A stretch of DNA of 63,310 bases, filler included, from Collodictyon triciliatum (Eukaryota), in NCBI GenBank assembly GCA_043381765.1. It is 15 parts of 15 records of this genome, joined end to end, with 100 filler letters (N's around TTAATTAATTAA, not from the genome) between each part and the next. Parts side by side here need not be neighbours in the genome. Positions count along the whole stretch, not along the records: positions 40,736 to 44,692 come from JBHJMP010006667.1; 14 more parts are not named here. The stretch is one strand, 5' to 3'. The position numbers were made by a program, and so were the translations under genes. Each line of letters begins with the position of its first letter. Position 1 is the first letter of the stretch. Shown one piece after another: positions 6,425-60,593 of this stretch. The notes beneath the pieces are model-generated. The model was not told the DNA's origin, made no database searches, and saw only the letters and a list, made by a program, of their open reading frames with translations.

Positions 6425-7258
6425 TACATTTCTCTTTTCGTTTTTTCCACTTAAAGACATATAAGAGTACTGGTATTATTCCCCCTATCTAACATCAGTT
6501 TTATTGAAGGCACATTCGATGTCTCTCCCAACTCCATTCTTTTTTTCTTTTTGCTTCATTCGACTCAAACCCCTCCCAACTGCACTAATGTCTTTGTCAC
6601 AAACGATTTAGATTTATCGAGCACGGCCAAATCGCACCGAGCGGGTCACACACATCACCGCACGTCATCACTGTCCTCAAAGCTCAACTCGCTCAAAAGC
6701 AGCTTCCTGCGTATTTTTGATAAGTGAACACCCGCGGTGTGTGTTCATTGGTTGTGTCATAGTACAAAGAATCAAAACAAAACAAGACAAACCAAAACAA
6801 AAAAGAAAAAAAAAAGGAAGAGTATGTGTATTCAACCGAAACAAGTTTGGTTCGCCCCGTTCTCTTGGTTTTGCTCCTAATCTTTTACTTTGTGCCCACG
6901 CACGCGTCGTTTATTGCATTCCAGAACCATCCACAGTTCGTTCAAAATAATAATAATAATAATAATAATCTGAAGAAGAGGAAATAAAAAAAGTTGCAAA
7001 ATAATGGCGAGGTTGAAGCAACATTCTGGCATCACAACGAGCGATGTTTTCTTGCAACCAAGGAACACACGCGATAAGCAGTTGCCATGCCATGTAATAT
7101 CTTTGTCGGCATGCAGACATTTCTTTTCTTGCACCCATATTTTTATTTTCTTCTCATGGGAATGGTTGAGATGAAAGGTGTGAAAAGCATTGTTTTTCTT
7201 CCAAGGCCAACCAATCTTCCTCATTTTTTTTCATTTTTCATCGTTGTTTTTTTCTTTT

Positions 7259-37387: not shown

Positions 37388-40370
37388 TTATTTGCTGAAC
37401 TGCGTGAGAAGAGCATCCAGCTTCTGATTCAGTTGTCCCATGGCCAGGTTGGAGCTCTGCGATGATGCGTTGATGAGAAACCCGTCGTGAGTTGAGTATT
37501 AGAGATTACACGTACCAGCTCTGGATTTACATCGAAACCCATCAAGCACACAGAATAAGGCGAGGATGATGTCGCCTTTGTTTGGGACAGATACCAGCGC
37601 AATGTAAAGGTGTCTTGGGATGAAAAGAATGAGAATTCAATATTACCGCGACAGTCAAGTGGCCCGGTGCCGTTTGGAGGAGCTGGCGCTGCTTGGCAAG
37701 TTCCTTGCGGGCTTTGGAAAGATCGGAATCGTCCCCAGTACCGTAAGAGATTTCACCGCGGTGGTCAAAGTAGTAGGGAGTTTCAAGTTGAGGCACCTAA
37801 GATAGGATAGTGATGTTATCTGATATGTTCTCTTTTACCGAGGACGTAAACTCTGGTCACATCCTCCTTATGATGGAGCAATATAGAATATCATGCAACT
37901 CTGGTGCAGGAAGAACCAGTACCTCCCAGAATTCCCTGTCTTGGTAAAAGTCGGTTGCAGGTTCGAACTTCTTGATGAAAGCACCAGTGATGAGTCCAGA
38001 TGTGATGGCAATCCCAAGGGTAATGAAGAGAAACCCGATTTGAACACCAGCCTGTGAAGTTTGAGAGGGAATAGTATTTCAATTCAAGGAATTATGGAAA
38101 GTCACTGAGATTCTTTCCATAAAAAAAAAAGCCTCATTGCAATCAAAACGAGAGCACAGTGGAGATAGATATTTAAACGGGCCCTGATAAAATACCGCGA
38201 TGATGTATTACCTGCTCCTGCATGGTTCTGTCGTAGTTGATGACACCTGGGAAAACACTGTAAAGGGTGTCACCTTGATAGAACTCGAGCTTGGCAAATC
38301 CAGCAATGACAGCGCTGAGAGCCCCTGAAATCACTCCGGGCATACCGTGCAAGTTATGGACACCACATGTGTCATGGAGTCTGAGATACTTCTCCAAGAA
38401 CCCTTGGACGTAGACAAATCCGAAGACACTGATTGAGCCTGCAGCACAACCAATGACAAGGCTTCCGAACGGATACGGATTCATGTTTGCGACAGAGCCA
38501 ATTGCAACACCCCCAGCAAGCGTGGCATTCTGAACATCGACCATGTGGAAGCGCTCATCACCGCGCAGGAAGCGAGAGGTAATGAAGGCAGTAACGCAGC
38601 TTCCAGACAGGGAGATGACGGTATTAATGATGGCGCGTTGCTCGGAATCAGGAGTACCAGGGGCACTGTTGAAGCTTGGCCAGAACATCCACAGGAAAAC
38701 AGTTCCGATCATCGAGAAAAGATCTGACCTGTTGGATGCACATGTCGATTAAGAAAATACATCCGCAATACACGAGACGGCAGAGTAAATAAGTATGGCC
38801 ACATGAAGTAACATGACCAAATATGAAAATATATATCAGCAATTAACGAGTGCTACGTTATTCAGTATTTGTATTTGTAACATATAACAAATGTGCACCT
38901 GTAATCGGCAGAATTGTCTGAGCGACCACGAGCCTTAGAGGAAGTCAGCATAGCAGAGGCAGACAGTCCAAAGTATGCTCCAAATGTATGAATCACCATG
39001 GAACCACCAATATCGGCAACGTTGAGGAAGTTGCAGATGGTTTCGTTAAGGGAATAGAAGATGACTTCAAAGAATGCGACGAGCAAAAGTTGAGTTGGGC
39101 TCACCTATTATCGATGTGAAATAATTAGATGACAAGAAAAATGAAACAGGATACATCCAACACAAAAAAAATAAAATATTATCTATGGAAAAATAAAGAG
39201 AGAGAGAGAAAAAAGCTATTTGTGTCAAATAATAATAGAATCTTGATTAAAGACTTAAATCACTTGTGATGGTTGTTGTTTTGAAAGTAGAGGGAGAGTG
39301 GATGGTGGACAAATATAAATGAGAAATAAAATACAATCACAATATCATTTAACTTGAAAATAACTTTGAGAAAAAAAAGGGGATTTTACAACAAAATCTC
39401 AGAAGAGAAATAAGGGGAGTTACCTTTCCTAGGAGCGCGCCATATGTGATAAGGACGGAGCCAGCAGCAAAGTCGGCCAGGACAAACTTGTAGATATCGA
39501 TCTCGAGGGCCTCGTCCAGCTTGTCATGGAACAGATGCTCCCAGAAGCCGCCGCAGAGGATGTACCACTGGATGACAAACGCGCCGATGAGGAAATTGAA
39601 CCCAACTGAGGAGTAGCCGTACTTTCGCAGGAAAGTCATGAGAAAGCCGAAGCCGATAAAGATCATGACATGGACGTCCTGGAACTGCGGGTATCCGTTA
39701 TCGATTTGGCCATCGCCGTCCTCAGTGTAAAGGTCGTCCGAGTAGCGGACAAACAGTCCAAAGAACAGGATAAAGAGAGCCTGGAAGCCACCGAAGATGG
39801 GGACAAACCAGCTCTCTCGGTGCGTCTCGGCAAGAACTCCACCGTACTCCTCAAGCTTCTCGCGGACTTGGTCCTGACCCACACGGGCGGCGTGGCGAAT
39901 GGCGTCTGTCAACGGGCTGCCTCCAAAGCGGTCCTGAGCGTGGACATCGGCTCCGCGTGAAAGCAGAAACTCCACCACTTCCAAGTGGCCCTCGCTCGAG
40001 GCAAGATGCAGTGGTGTGCGGCTGTCGTAATCAGCGCAGTTGACCGAGACTCCAACGCGCACAAGGCGCTGAACGTGGGGAAGATCTCCCGCGCCAGCTA
40101 TGTTAATATGGTTTGTCTTTGGTTATGTTTTGATTTCTTTAATGTTTTCTTTATTTTTGTTTCGTTTTTTTTGTTTCGTTTTTTTTGTTTCGTTTTTTTT
40201 GTTTCGTTTTTTTGTTTCGTTTTTTGTTTCGTTTTTTGTTTCGTTTTTTTGTTTGTTTGTGAACAAACCTGCAGCAATCAAGTCAGTCTCAAGTTCATTA
40301 GGATTTCCGGAGCGGGCGCCAGAGAGAGCGAGGATATCGACAACACCGTCATTTTTGACACGGAGAGCAT
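37388..40370 (-). CDS. Ankyrin repeat - Rh (Rhesus-type ammonium/gas channel) fusion protein, 5' truncated
   Basis: ANK repeats (DYDSRTPLHLASSEGHLEVVEFLL..GADV...DRFGGSPL) run in one exon into Rh motifs YPQFQDVHVMIFIGFGFLMTFLRKYG. Later exons give DIGGSMVIHTFGAYFGL, IGTVFLWMFWPSFNS, QNATLAGGVAIG and LHDTCGVHNLHGMPG. The last exon (..LNQKLDALLTQFSK*) is tentative. Confidence 0.93.
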
Positions 40371-40635: not shown

Positions 40636-40997
40636 NNNNNNNNNNNNNNNNNNNNNNNNNNNNNNNNNNNNNNNNNNNNTTAATTAATTAANNNNNNNNN
40701 NNNNNNNNNNNNNNNNNNNNNNNNNNNNNNNNNNNGGCAAATCAGTTCTCAGAGAATGATGGCAAATGAACAAGAGAATAGAACGCCTGATGTAATCATT
40801 TGTATCAATCGTAAATAATACAATAAGATATTCATATGAGCATATTTACAGGGGACTCGCGATGCTGTAGTCCTAGAAATCAAAAGCAGTTTTCATGATT
40901 TATTAATATTAATAATAGTATCATTATCAGTATCATTATCATTATCATCATCATCATTATTATTATTATCATCATCATCATCATCATCATTATTATT

Positions 40998-41340: not shown

Positions 41341-42270
41341 GAGGCTGTGTCTTTCCATGGAGGAGTATTTTCCCGACGAGATACCAGTACCAGTTTTCAT
41401 AGCGACCGCAACATCAGAAACTCCGATTCATATACCGATATATACCCAGAAAACGTATCTGCATCCGACTATGACGTAATCCGTTTTTTCGTTATTGCTG
41501 ATAGCTATTTTTAGAGTATATCATGTTATTCCTTAAAATATATTATGGGGATATTGGAAAATCTCATGAGGTGTGGAATCATGCTTCGTAAACTAATAAC
41601 CAAACCAATTTATAGCGAAAAAAACACATTCTCTTGAAAGGAAGCGATATCCATCCCGTCTCACAAATGACGTCTTATTATTTTGACTCAAGCGCGACTG
41701 ATCTGGAAAAGACTGTGCAAGAAAATGAGGACAGGCGAGGCCATACCACTGAAGTTCCTCAAAGAGTCGATGGAGTGACAGTTCATCACCAATCTCCCGA
41801 AAGACACCATCACCAGCCAGTAATCCTAATTTAGTGTTCATAGAACTCGAAGCACTCAAAATTAATCTGAGAGCATAATGGATAAAAATAAAGGAGAATA
41901 GTATTCTTTTATACATTAAAATAACCTTGATATATTTCTTATCGACGCCCAATAGCCAACACAAAAGACCTCAGGAAAACAAGCAGATCTAACTACGCAG
42001 GCGCTGGACTCCTTTTCCATGCACAGTCAAACTACGCCAAAGGATATACGATATATGTACCTTGTGCAACAGCATCGACTTCGCATCCGGCAAGAAATAT
42101 CACACGGCCTTGTTCACTCTCTTGTCCAAGCCATGAATTTGGACCAGACAGAGTCCGAAATCCAGTGCGCAACACTCATCCGGGAGATCGAGCTACTGGA
42201 GGAATCCCGCCTCAACGAACTACTTTCAGCACCTGGCGTGACTCTTGAATCGCAGCTGGACGAAAACTGA
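41341..42270 (+). CDS. Hypothetical protein (3' exons)
   Basis: AG/GT-bounded open segments 41641-41819 and 41956-42270, ending ..LIREIELLEESRLNELL..QLDEN*. No recognisable domain. Confidence 0.4.
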
Positions 42271-42674
42271 TTATCTTTTTGGGCCAGCGAATAATATTAG
42301 GGCGATACCAAAAAAAAAAAAAAAAATATGGCGCAATGCTTAGGCGCACCCTATTTTCATATCCAACATACTACATGTCTAATTAGCCTCGTCGACTCAC
42401 GAGGCGTCTGTTGTTGACCGAACTAATATAACGCATCTATATTTTTTTCTTATTGAATTGTCGAAAATCAACCGATGGCAATGGCGACTATGGAAAATAA
42501 ACTTCTTTTAAAAAAATCTTTGTTAACTTTGCAAACTTGAAAAAAACAAAACTAATTTAGCCTGCACTGTCACACAAAAAGGAACAGAAAAATGTGAGTT
42601 CCGAAGGAATAACAGATGCAATAGCGGGAAGCCAAAACAAAGGGGATTCAGCGGTCGCGCCAGGTGTTCAAAAA

Positions 42675-42757
42675 CCTGCTCTACCAACTGAGCTACTGGG
42701 CACAAACAATGCGCACCCAGGTGAGAATCGAACACACGACCAGGAGGTTAAAAGCCT
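42675..42757 (-). tRNA. Circularly permuted tRNA-Lys(UUU)-like gene (3' part 42757-42713, spacer 42712-42703, 5' part 42702-42675)
   Basis: Minus strand: AGG CTTTTAA CCTCC TGGTC GTGTG TTCGATT CTCAC CTGGGTG C (positions 29-73), then a 10 nt spacer, then TGCCCAG TA GCTC AGTTGGTA GAGC A GG (positions 1-28). Joined, these give a full cloverleaf with a perfect GGAGG/CCTCC anticodon stem. Confidence 0.85.
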
Positions 42758-43037
42758 AACGAAGTAACACCCAACTAGCGCATCAACCCCACAAAACAAG
42801 ATAATTGACAGTTTATAACATCAAACTTTCCATACAAACAAGGTATGGACTCGCCAAAATGACGACCTTAATGGCTGTTCGGCATCTCTTACTCTCATTA
42901 TTTTTTAAACTTCCATTTTGTTAAACTATTTAATTATTTTTTTTTTCAGGGCGATGAGGCGCTTGCTTCCCGTGTTGGATGTGAGAAAAGGAGTGAATGA
43001 GGGCTGCTCAGCAATGTACTTTTTTTTTCACAAGTGC

Positions 43038-44320
43038 TTATTTCTTTCCTTTTGGTTTCCCTTTCTTCTTTTCCTTCTTTGCGGCATTTTTTATGCAAAC
43101 CGCATCAATTTGAGCAAGAATGGCAGACCCTTCAACTCCGGCGTGATTGCCAATAGCATGGACCGATGTGATTGAGGGGCATCCTCTGTAAAGAAATAGG
43201 TGTGGAGGCTTTAGTTTATCTTCTTGCGAAAGAAATGTGCAGATATATATTCCCCCTGGTGTGAGCAAGAAAAGGGAGACATATGAATGAACTAAAGTAG
43301 GAAGTAACGTGACAGTGGAGAGGTTTTATAATTCCTTTACTTCACTGCCTCGGCCAAAATATTAAGACCTTCGAGCCCAATGTGATTACACTCAATATTC
43401 AGAGAAACCAAGGTTCTAGATTACAGAGTAGGCCAATTAAAATTTTATACAACCATTCACAAACACCAAAAGACAAGATTAAATAGCCAAATGTCGATAG
43501 ACATGATATCTTACTTGCTCATTTTGATGGCCTCTCCAAGGTGCCTCATCCCCTCTACTGTGATACTGTTTTCTCCCAGATTGACATGGGTCATTTCCCG
43601 GACCTTGATTAGGCGGGACACCATTTCGGCTCCTTCATCTCCGATCTTGTTACAGGCAAGATTTAGTGCGGCAAAATGCTCCTTCGTCTTGAGCTTCTCG
43701 GCTATCAGACGCAGACCAATAGCTGTCAAGGTATTATGGCCTAATTGGAGACTTCGAATCGAGCAGGAAATGAATTTGGTAGTTCAGACAGAAAGCCAGC
43801 CAGTCAATCGAAAAGCAGTTTAGCGAGTTATCTCCATTAGGGTAAAGCGGTTCAGGAATAGATATAATTGGGGAAGGGAAACAAAAGAAAAAACAAAGAG
43901 AATAATAATAATAACAATAATAATCATAATATTAAATATATGAGTGGGGGTCAGACCTGACCAGCGCTGTATTACGGTCGAGGAGGTCCGACAATGTATG
44001 AGCATCAAGGTCGCTAAAGCCAGTGCCACTCAAATTGATTTCAGTCACTGTGAGAGCGTCCGAGGTTCTGAGTACGTTTGTGATCTGCGGTCCAAACATA
44101 AAAGCAGCAGACAGTTTTCAGCGGTGGTTATGTGAACAGTTGGACCAAGTGAAGAGGCGCACGTGTTCGGCACGGACATGTAGATAAAAAGAAAGAGAAA
44201 AGAGAGTGAAAATAAGCGAAGAGAAGAGCAGGGAAAAAGTACCATTTGGAGGGGACTGGCAGGTGCTTTGATGATGTCCTCTGCAGTAAGGATCGGGCGT
44301 GATCCGCTGGAGCCGGCCAT
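43038..44320 (-). CDS. RI-like leucine-rich repeat protein
   Basis: Repeats INLSGTGFSD, LQLGHNTLTAIG, LNLACNKIGDEGA, VNLGENSITVEGM and LNIECNHIGLEGL, with a lysine-rich C-terminus ..KKKGKPKGKK*. Confidence 0.85.
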
Positions 44321-45203
44321 TTCTGTCTGGTCTCTGTGGCTTTTCTTTTTCCTTTTCTTCTTCCCTAAAGGTTGTATGTTTTGGACTTGGTTGTTTGGAT
44401 TCTGTTTGGTGCGATCTTTTCTTGTTGCGTTATTTTGATTATACTTTTTTTTTTTTTTGAGAACTGAAATGAGATGGGGTTAATCGGGGATAACTGCTTT
44501 CGATGTGCATGATATACAAAATTATATATACTCTATATGAAATTTGGTATTATTCACAACTTTGAGGGATCAGATAGGTAAAAAATAGTTATTTACAATA
44601 TTTTCCAGATTTAAGATTGGATGAAAATAGCCCTGCCCACAAAAAACAAAAAACAAAAAACAAAAAACAAAAAACAAAAAACAAAAAACAAANNNNNNNN
44701 NNNNNNNNNNNNNNNNNNNNNNNNNNNNNNNNNNNNTTAATTAATTAANNNNNNNNNNNNNNNNNNNNNNNNNNNNNNNNNNNNNNNNNNNNTTGTTTTT
44801 TTTTTGTTTTTGTTTTTGTTTTTGTTTTGTTTTTGTTTGTTTTTTGCTTGTTAGACGGTTGGTTCTGTTTCAGATCAGATTCGTTGGGGTTGGGGGCGTT
44901 GTGGGCGCGGTGGGAAGCGGAGCGGAACGGCCGAATGGGAAAGTCCTTGCTGTTTGGTGAGCCGAATCGACGAAATGGGATGACAGATTATATATTCTCT
45001 TGGGAACTGGGCTATATTCAAAGAAAAGCGTGCTTGTATGTGTAATATTCGGTAGTGAGGGTTCGAAGCATTTACCAGCTCTTTGTCCCAACGCCCCTGA
45101 TTTAATGAGAACTATGGTATTATTCGAGGCACCCCCCTTTTTTTTTTTCTTTTTTCCTTTTATTTCTCCCCTTTACACGGCACCGACCACCCTTTTGAGC
45201 AAG

Positions 45204-53440: not shown

Positions 53441-55590
<2,150 letters not shown>

Positions 55591-60254: not shown

Positions 60255-60593
60255 TGTGATGATGTGCCTTGTGAGCATCATTGCTCACAAATATTCTCTA
60301 ATAAGGTGGGTTAAAAGAGAAAAAAAGAGAGAAAAAAAGAGAGAAAAAAAGAGAGAAAAAAAGAGAGAAAAAAAGAGAGAAAAAAAGAGAGAAAAAAAGA
60401 GAGAAAAAAAGNNNNNNNNNNNNNNNNNNNNNNNNNNNNNNNNNNNNNNNNNNNNTTAATTAATTAANNNNNNNNNNNNNNNNNNNNNNNNNNNNNNNNN
60501 NNNNNNNNNNNAAAGATGGTAGTGCCCGGGAAGGGGGGGGGATTTAGTCTAGAGAGGTGTTTGTTTTTTTGGGGGGGGGGGGGGCTGAAATAC

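Follow-up and report, generated by a model that had tools for sequence, protein, structure and literature searches.

[quoted passage not shown] Table 1 of the review PMC3978253 contains 34 such genes, with junctions at 15/16, 20/21, 37/38, 50/51 and 59/60. The features that the review describes for them are a BHB motif at the junction, which it terms pivotal, an intervening sequence with a known range of 1–74 nt, a TATA-like box upstream (within 50 bp) and a T-stretch downstream of the gene. Eukaryotic endonucleases, according to its section 8, measure to 37/38. Section 10 sets out a model in which permuted genes originate by tandem duplication and reports that in Ostreococcus lucimarinus an extra 5′ half lies behind a permuted tRNA-Cys gene. 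For an origin by duplication and loss, the review takes two-piece (permuted) tmRNA and permuted rRNA genes as its model.

In YrlA RNA (RF02553; Chen et al. 2014, PMC4201824), the two ends of the RNA pair to form a stem, inside which lie, in this order, a T arm, an acceptor-like helix with a cap and a D arm; the locus described here has the same arrangement. Metazoan Y RNAs are described in that paper as being without a tRNA-like module. In the split tRNA genes of Nanoarchaeum equitans (PMC3978253, sections 8 and 10), complementary extra sequences beside the break bring the parts together, as they could at our locus; the Nanoarchaeum parts, however, are separate genes whose BHB joint is cut and ligated, whereas our unit is single and has no BHB.

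The locus shares with the permuted tRNA genes of Cyanidioschyzon merolae, Ostreococcus, Micromonas, the Bigelowiella natans nucleomorph and Thermofilum pendens (PMC3978253) the order of 3′ part before 5′ part and a short intervening sequence; a TATA-like box and a T-stretch also flank it, but resemble those of the known genes less clearly. As in those genes, joining gives a canonical cloverleaf and CCA is not encoded, and a leftover piece of a second copy fits their tandem-duplication model. It differs from the genes of the review in the position of the break, which lies in the anticodon stem at 28/29, in the lack of a BHB, in an anticodon loop that is not conserved in a related contig and in a host that is not alga-like. 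What we describe is a rare layout, a unit-length permuted tRNA body that lacks a BHB and belongs to a freshwater protist which does not appear to be an alga.

Organization of the permuted unit

The locus is a genuine circular permutation of a sequence of tRNA-Lys(UUU) type; it is exactly one unit long and is broken at 28/29. On the minus strand of the window (the whole stretch of 63,310 nucleotides that was analysed), tRNA positions 29–73 (42757–42713) come first and are followed by a 10-nt spacer (42712–42703) and by positions 1–28 (42702–42675), exactly where a preliminary description of the locus had placed them. The motifs given in that description (the loop CTTTTAA, the variable region TGGTC, the T loop TTCGATT of the 3′ part, and T8-A9, the D stem GCTC/GAGC and G18G19 of the 5′ part) are likewise all present. 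A T5 run (42674–42670) lies directly 3′ of G28. The features, all on the minus strand, are as follows:

42812–42817, minus: TATAAA, a candidate upstream promoter element
42792–42799, minus: upstream copy of the 8-nt direct repeat TTGTTTTG, which flanks the 149-nt unit
42758–42790, minus: leader, with the outer-stem GGGG (42790–42787) and the helix strand 42775–42766 that pairs with the trailer
42713–42757, minus: tRNA positions 29–73, with the 3′ three anticodon-stem pairs, the loop CTTTTAA, the variable region TGGTC, the T arm, the acceptor 3′ strand and C73
42703–42712, minus: intervening sequence of 10 nt, in the native order the loop that caps the acceptor helix; its last G can pair with C73
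42675–42702, minus: tRNA positions 1–28, with the acceptor 5′ strand, T8 A9, the D arm, A26 and G27 G28
42660–42674, minus: trailer +1 to +15, a decayed copy of tRNA positions 32–46, T5 run included
42642–42668, minus: trailer strand of the closing stem; 42668–42659 pairs with 42775–42766, and CCCC (42645–42642) pairs with GGGG
42633–42641, minus: TTTGTTTT run directly after the outer stem, a candidate terminator that contains the downstream TTGTTTTG copy (42640–42633)

tRNA character of the joined and native sequences

Joined by their coordinates, the two parts were recognized by ARAGORN (default threshold) as a tRNA-Lys(ttt) of 73 nt. In the joined form 20 of the 21 stem pairs are made. As can be seen in the ARAGORN drawing, all landmarks checked (T8, A14, G15 with C48, G18G19, A21, T33, T54-A58 and C56) are intact, and the blemishes noticed earlier, i.e., T1:G72, G2:T71, the T52:T62 mismatch and C73, are all real.

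In the native order, ARAGORN found no tRNA in the whole window, in line with the earlier remark that standard tRNA scanning does not apply here. Rfam at the gathering score returned nothing from the whole window, and the family of ordinary contiguous tRNAs (RF00005) gave no match up to E = 10 in 42550–42900. The sole Rfam match on the element up to E = 1 was a local YrlA alignment at 42744–42675 (36.4 bits; E 1.5e-6 in a 351-nt scan and 2.7e-4 for the whole window), which is below the gathering score of 69 and covers only model positions 24–84 of 114. The likeness is thus confined to the tRNA-like module of YrlA. A GNCGAA(N0-1)G or GGUCCGA-type motif for Ro/Rsr binding, as given in PMC4201824, was not found by direct reading of the leader (42790–42758). 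Since the score is below gathering and the GNCGAA motif is lacking, the unit is not a Y RNA. It also keeps an anticodon hairpin, unlike YrlA, and lies in a eukaryotic context. The tmRNA families in Rfam gave no match up to E = 1 in the window. The third acceptor pair of the unit is C3:G70, whereas tmRNA carries G3:U70.

The permuted unit is single-copy within the 63-kb window. The 18-mer of its D arm occurs there once with up to three mismatches allowed, and was matched in 3 of 100 shuffles. A loose structural scan of the window found no second convincing back-to-front tRNA body, against a noise level of 5.2 hits per shuffle, and a scan of viral contigs with the acceptor–spacer stretch gave 0 matches.

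A metagenome scan with a 19-nt query reaching from the T loop to the acceptor gave five loci, none of them related to the permuted unit. Four were rejected as chance matches within GC-rich, protein-coding-looking sequence, and the fifth (L002) as an odd tRNA-like sequence from another organism. The L002 sequence (7100–7168, minus strand) is 69 nt long, is called 'tRNA-???' with a two-base anticodon by ARAGORN, and has the T arm and acceptor 3′ strand in common with the permuted unit. Another metagenome contig is alike at 34 of 40 positions to 42715–42754 and continues into an ordinary tRNA 5′ half; judged by its sequence, it is a normal contiguous tRNA of another organism with a similar T arm. 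It is one of two contigs of the same run that are ordinary tRNA pieces of other organisms.

An independent contig carries a variant of the unit

A 268-nt contig with a depth of 2, from an independent freshwater metagenome run, is collinear with 42560–42827 and differs from the window by 20 other letters and 2 gaps. It spans both outer borders, from the leader to A29 and from G28 to the trailer. Since the order across these borders is the same, the permuted order is not an assembly artefact, and the misassembly that the preliminary description had named as a way in which its proposal might fail is not what was found. The same run contains a 171-nt piece identical to 42004–42174, and the 268-nt contig can therefore be taken as an allele or a close-strain version of the locus.

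The variant unit was rebuilt by applying the differences listed for the 268-nt contig to the window sequence. Joined at 28/29, it again gives a 73-nt cloverleaf. Ten of the 22 differences fall within the 83-nt unit, and no stem pair is broken by them: C13 → T keeps a wobble pair with G22, T52 → A restores the pair 52:62, and T17 → G together with G19 → A still leaves GG in the D loop, with G15/C48 kept. The variable region has lost one base and changed another while keeping C48, and one base of the spacer is changed. The anticodon loop of the variant can be drawn with 8 nt, or as a 7-nt UUC loop with an A29:C41 mismatch in the stem. After G28 the variant reads TTTT and then A, not T5. The leader (42758–42790) carries no listed difference, and two of the three differences in trailer +1 to +33 (at 42670 and 42662) add or strengthen a pair of the closing stem.

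When ten changes were placed at random, no pair was lost in 103 of 20,000 trials, a figure that is conditional on ten changes; the differences fall in about 6 clusters, and by a rough estimate the chance rises to about 0.05 if they reflect 6 events. The unit is not conserved above the flank background (10/83 differences in the unit versus 12/185 in the flanks, Fisher p = 0.149). Stems were changed at 2 of 42 positions (Fisher p = 1.0 against the same flanks), and the chance of seeing no disruptive stem change at the flank rate is about 0.13. The loops, with 8 of 41 positions changed, outpaced the flanks (p = 0.014), which is predicted by no simple model of function. Selection on the fold between window and variant is suggested by these counts, and a decoding role common to the two versions is unlikely.

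Contigs with the 83-nt unit came only from two DNA-type runs; the RNA-labelled runs (one with a guessed label, one a metatranscriptome) gave none, which counts as missing data. Among the contigs of four runs, none joins 42675 to 42757 and none has an empty site, and contigs of this kind cannot show absence.

The break at 28/29 and the BHB motif

At the 28|29 cut, a geometric search over the precursor found no BHB, whether strict or relaxed. Two of the four central-helix pairs form there, with h = 0 and h′ = 0, and loops of 6 and 8 nt separate the cut sites from the leader–trailer helix; other BHB-like geometries in the precursor would not give a tRNA. The 28/29 junction is absent from Table 1 of PMC3978253, and no case turned up among the papers surveyed, PMC13578239 included. 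The locus had been proposed as a new permutation type. That holds insofar as its break lies outside the junctions of Table 1; the further step to a permuted tRNA gene maturing via a circular intermediate is not supported, the BHB being absent and the anticodon loop changed in the variant.

A vestige of a second tRNA copy in the trailer

The beginning of the trailer (42674–42660) matches tRNA positions 32–46 in 11 of 15 ungapped positions, at an offset of 3. In a positional test, 45 of 20,000 shuffled trailers matched as well as this, and none of 1146 genomic 45-mers did. A free local alignment of the trailer with the 3′ part was not significant (2185/5000), so that the positional test alone is significant. 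The similarity to tRNA ends at trailer +15, the next 35 nt being without likeness. As a vestige of the 5′ part, the leader was not significant either by local alignment (866/5000 shuffles) or in the positional test (13,629/20,000). Given the 11/15 match, the T5 run would most simply be the decayed anticodon loop of a second tRNA copy, and the locus as a whole is the leftover of a tandem tRNA-Lys duplication, as the origin model of PMC3978253 proposes.

Closing stem and flanking signals

The duplex of leader and trailer predicted by RNAduplex has an energy of −25.5 kcal/mol, a value reached by 53 of 2000 shuffles and by 10 of 607 genomic controls of the same geometry. This closing stem, which bounds a 149-nt unit (42790–42642), is retained together with four hairpins inside it when window and variant are folded jointly by RNAalifold.

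TATAAA starts 27 nt ahead of the G that opens the outer stem and lies 55–60 nt upstream of A29. The minus strand contains 41 such hexamers in 61,595 non-N bases, which gives any 12-nt span a probability of about 0.008 of holding one, a post hoc figure. For permuted genes the review places the box within 50 bp (PMC3978253), against 55–60 nt here; the T5 run directly follows G28, but is T4A in the variant and resembles a decayed anticodon loop. An internal T5 would stop RNA polymerase III before the trailer strand, and the closing stem and a Pol III origin are therefore in tension. A dictyostelid DUSE promoter was considered and dropped, the host not being shown to be dictyostelid.

Judged by sequence, TTGTTTTG on both sides of the 149-nt unit looks like an insertion footprint. 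A shared 8-mer of this kind in 12-nt flanks occurred at 266 of 59,300 window positions of the same geometry. SINEs and MITEs derived from tRNA would occur as many dispersed copies with terminal repeats and target-site duplications; the unit has the 8-nt flanking repeat, is single-copy in the 63-kb window and has a weak terminal inverted repeat (12/30).

A possible tRNA-mimic RNA

The locus may be a gene for a small RNA that mimics tRNA and is not rejoined, and we tentatively favour this reading. It builds on the layout, the compatibility with the fold, the vestige, the closing stem and the promoter- and terminator-like signals described above, and would add transcription, processing and a function to them. 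A tandem duplication of a tRNA gene would have given rise to the tRNA-Lys(UUU)-derived unit, and transcription would start at the TATA-type promoter upstream and end in one of the T-runs. In the transcript, the leader/trailer stem would enclose four hairpins, namely the anticodon hairpin, the T arm, the capped acceptor helix and the D arm. The cloverleaf would then form with a permanent break in the anticodon stem, so that no joining of ends at 28/29 would be needed. The acceptor helix of 7–8 bp may be opened by RNase P and tRNase Z and then receive CCA, by analogy with the YrlA RNA of Mycobacterium smegmatis, whose acceptor stem of 7 bp makes it a substrate for RNase P and for the addition of CCA in vivo (PMC4201824). 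The product would be a small structured RNA that imitates the body of a tRNA and does not decode.

An unjoined mimic is favoured because the permuted tRNA body is real, with its landmarks intact and 20 of 21 pairs made, and because the native order matches only the tRNA-like module of YrlA. The leader–trailer duplex and the consensus fold, which retains the closing stem and the four hairpins, also point to it, as do the differences of the variant: none of the ten in the unit breaks a stem pair, and two of the three in the trailer strengthen the closing stem. TATAAA 27 nt before the outer stem and a T-run after its last base are consistent with a transcript of these limits. A mimic is preferred over a decoder because the anticodon loop has been free to change in the variant.

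Several observations weaken this reading. The signal of conservation is weak against the flank rate, the loops outpace the flanks, and the differences are clustered. DNA-level correction of an imperfect inverted repeat could also yield changes that improve pairing. If the direct repeat is an insertion footprint, the TATA box would be a coincidence. If the locus is expressed, it would represent a second use of the permuted layout, either as a YrlA-like eukaryotic tRNA mimic or through a new joining route.

Alternative readings

It is possible, if somewhat doubtful, that nothing useful is made from the locus and that it is a non-functional remnant or an inserted copy, in which a tandem tRNA-Lys pair, or a copy of slightly more than one repeat unit, was rearranged or inserted and is now decaying neutrally. 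The trailer vestige serves such a remnant as proof of a duplication history, and the similar rates of difference in unit and flanks (10/83 versus 12/185, Fisher p = 0.149), with no conservation above background, are what neutral decay would leave. The neutral route, however, requires two breakpoints at the same tRNA position that leave exactly one unit. The two acceptor wobbles, C73 and the T52:T62 mismatch could be early decay and the anticodon loop differs between window and variant, but in the inner parts 20 of 21 pairs are still made and none of the landmarks checked is missing, whereas the redundant vestige has lost 4 of 15 bases and three nucleotides, and the ten variant differences break no stem pair. 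The flanking 8-nt direct repeat resembles a target-site duplication; against an inserted copy stand the weak inverted repeat (12/30) and the lack of a second copy in the 63-kb window. A remnant is also in keeping with the absence of a BHB and with the lack of RNA contigs and of a joined form in the four runs, the latter being missing data. It would make coincidences of both the leader–trailer stem and TATAAA at −27, at roughly 1–3% each. If the locus is dead, the unit preserves the intermediate of tandem duplication that is expected under the origin model.

A working, circularly permuted tRNA-Lys(UUU), in which the ends are removed, G28 is joined to A29 and the acceptor is opened by RNase P/tRNase Z without a BHB, is unlikely. 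The layout fits the family, with an intervening sequence of 10 nt inside the range of 1–74 and a vestige that fits the tandem-duplication origin (PMC3978253, section 10); a TATA-like box lies upstream and the 5′ part runs into a T-stretch, ARAGORN accepts the joined sequence as tRNA-Lys(ttt), and leader and trailer can pair with each other, as they do in permuted and split pre-tRNAs. Against this, neither a strict nor a relaxed BHB is present at 28|29 (2/4 central pairs, h = 0, h′ = 0), and eukaryotic endonucleases measure to 37/38 (PMC3978253, section 8). U1:G72, G2:U71 and C73 are atypical, and no joined RNA or DNA form occurs among the contigs of the four runs, which again is missing data. 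The variant argues further against decoding, since an orthologous decoding tRNA should tolerate neither an 8-nt loop nor UUC with A29:C41. Between close relatives a working tRNA gene is expected to show far fewer than 10 differences in 83 nt, and the 10 differences seen here are far above that expectation.

Were such a tRNA made nonetheless, its ends might be joined by trimming leader and trailer down to a nicked stem, in which a nick-sealing RNA ligase would join G28 to A29. Ligases of this kind are known from free-living amoebae, and the need of such a route for a duplex would explain a break within a helix. That the locus is the first working permuted tRNA outside algae and archaea, broken in the anticodon stem and matured without the BHB/splicing-endonuclease route, we consider improbable.

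An assembly artefact or a chance resemblance is hardly credible: the window is a draft with many N blocks, but the nearest of them (40692–40735 and 44693–44736) are far from the unit and the independent 268-nt contig, as far as contigs can show, rules out an artefact by running through the unit and past both borders with the order unchanged, while the YrlA match (E 2.7e-4 for the whole window) and the D-arm 18-mer (matched in only 3/100 shuffles) speak against chance.

Neighbouring genes and other features of the window

The last two exons of a leucine-rich-repeat gene (Pfam LRR_6) lie at 42998–43369 on the minus strand, with the stop codon (43040–43038) about 280 nt upstream of the permuted unit. 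Its last intron (43186–43340, GT..AG, minus strand) was confirmed by a metatranscriptome contig that skips 43186–43340.

Farther along, at 38173–40122 (minus strand), we observed a fusion gene in which N-terminal ankyrin repeats precede an ammonium transporter (Rh). The best matches that share the layout of this fusion are protist transcriptomes of EukProt, at 72% identity, and metagenome proteins share it too; one match is labelled as a Physarum transcript (55% identity). None of these best matches is labelled as an alga, in agreement with the earlier remark that the genes of the host do not point to the algae known for permuted tRNAs. Protein Atlas look-ups returned ankyrin and phosphatidylserine-decarboxylase clusters alone and did not place the host. 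Just below the Rh exon, at 38048–38134 (minus strand), there is a weak C/D-box snoRNA-like match (29.5 bits, E 0.75), which is at chance level. Apart from YrlA, the window has three Rfam matches up to E = 1 in all, each weak, snoRNA-like and outside the element.

Blocks of 44 N's occur in pairs 12 nt apart (3968–4011/4024–4067, 8033–8076/8089–8132) and recur every ~4.06 kb up to 60468–60511; with no pair near the unit, they look like masking or scaffolding and not like biology. A long open frame at 53441–54457 (minus strand) begins like a basic leucine zipper and contains about 35 glutamines in a row, and K-, N- and Q-rich low-complexity frames are common throughout the window.
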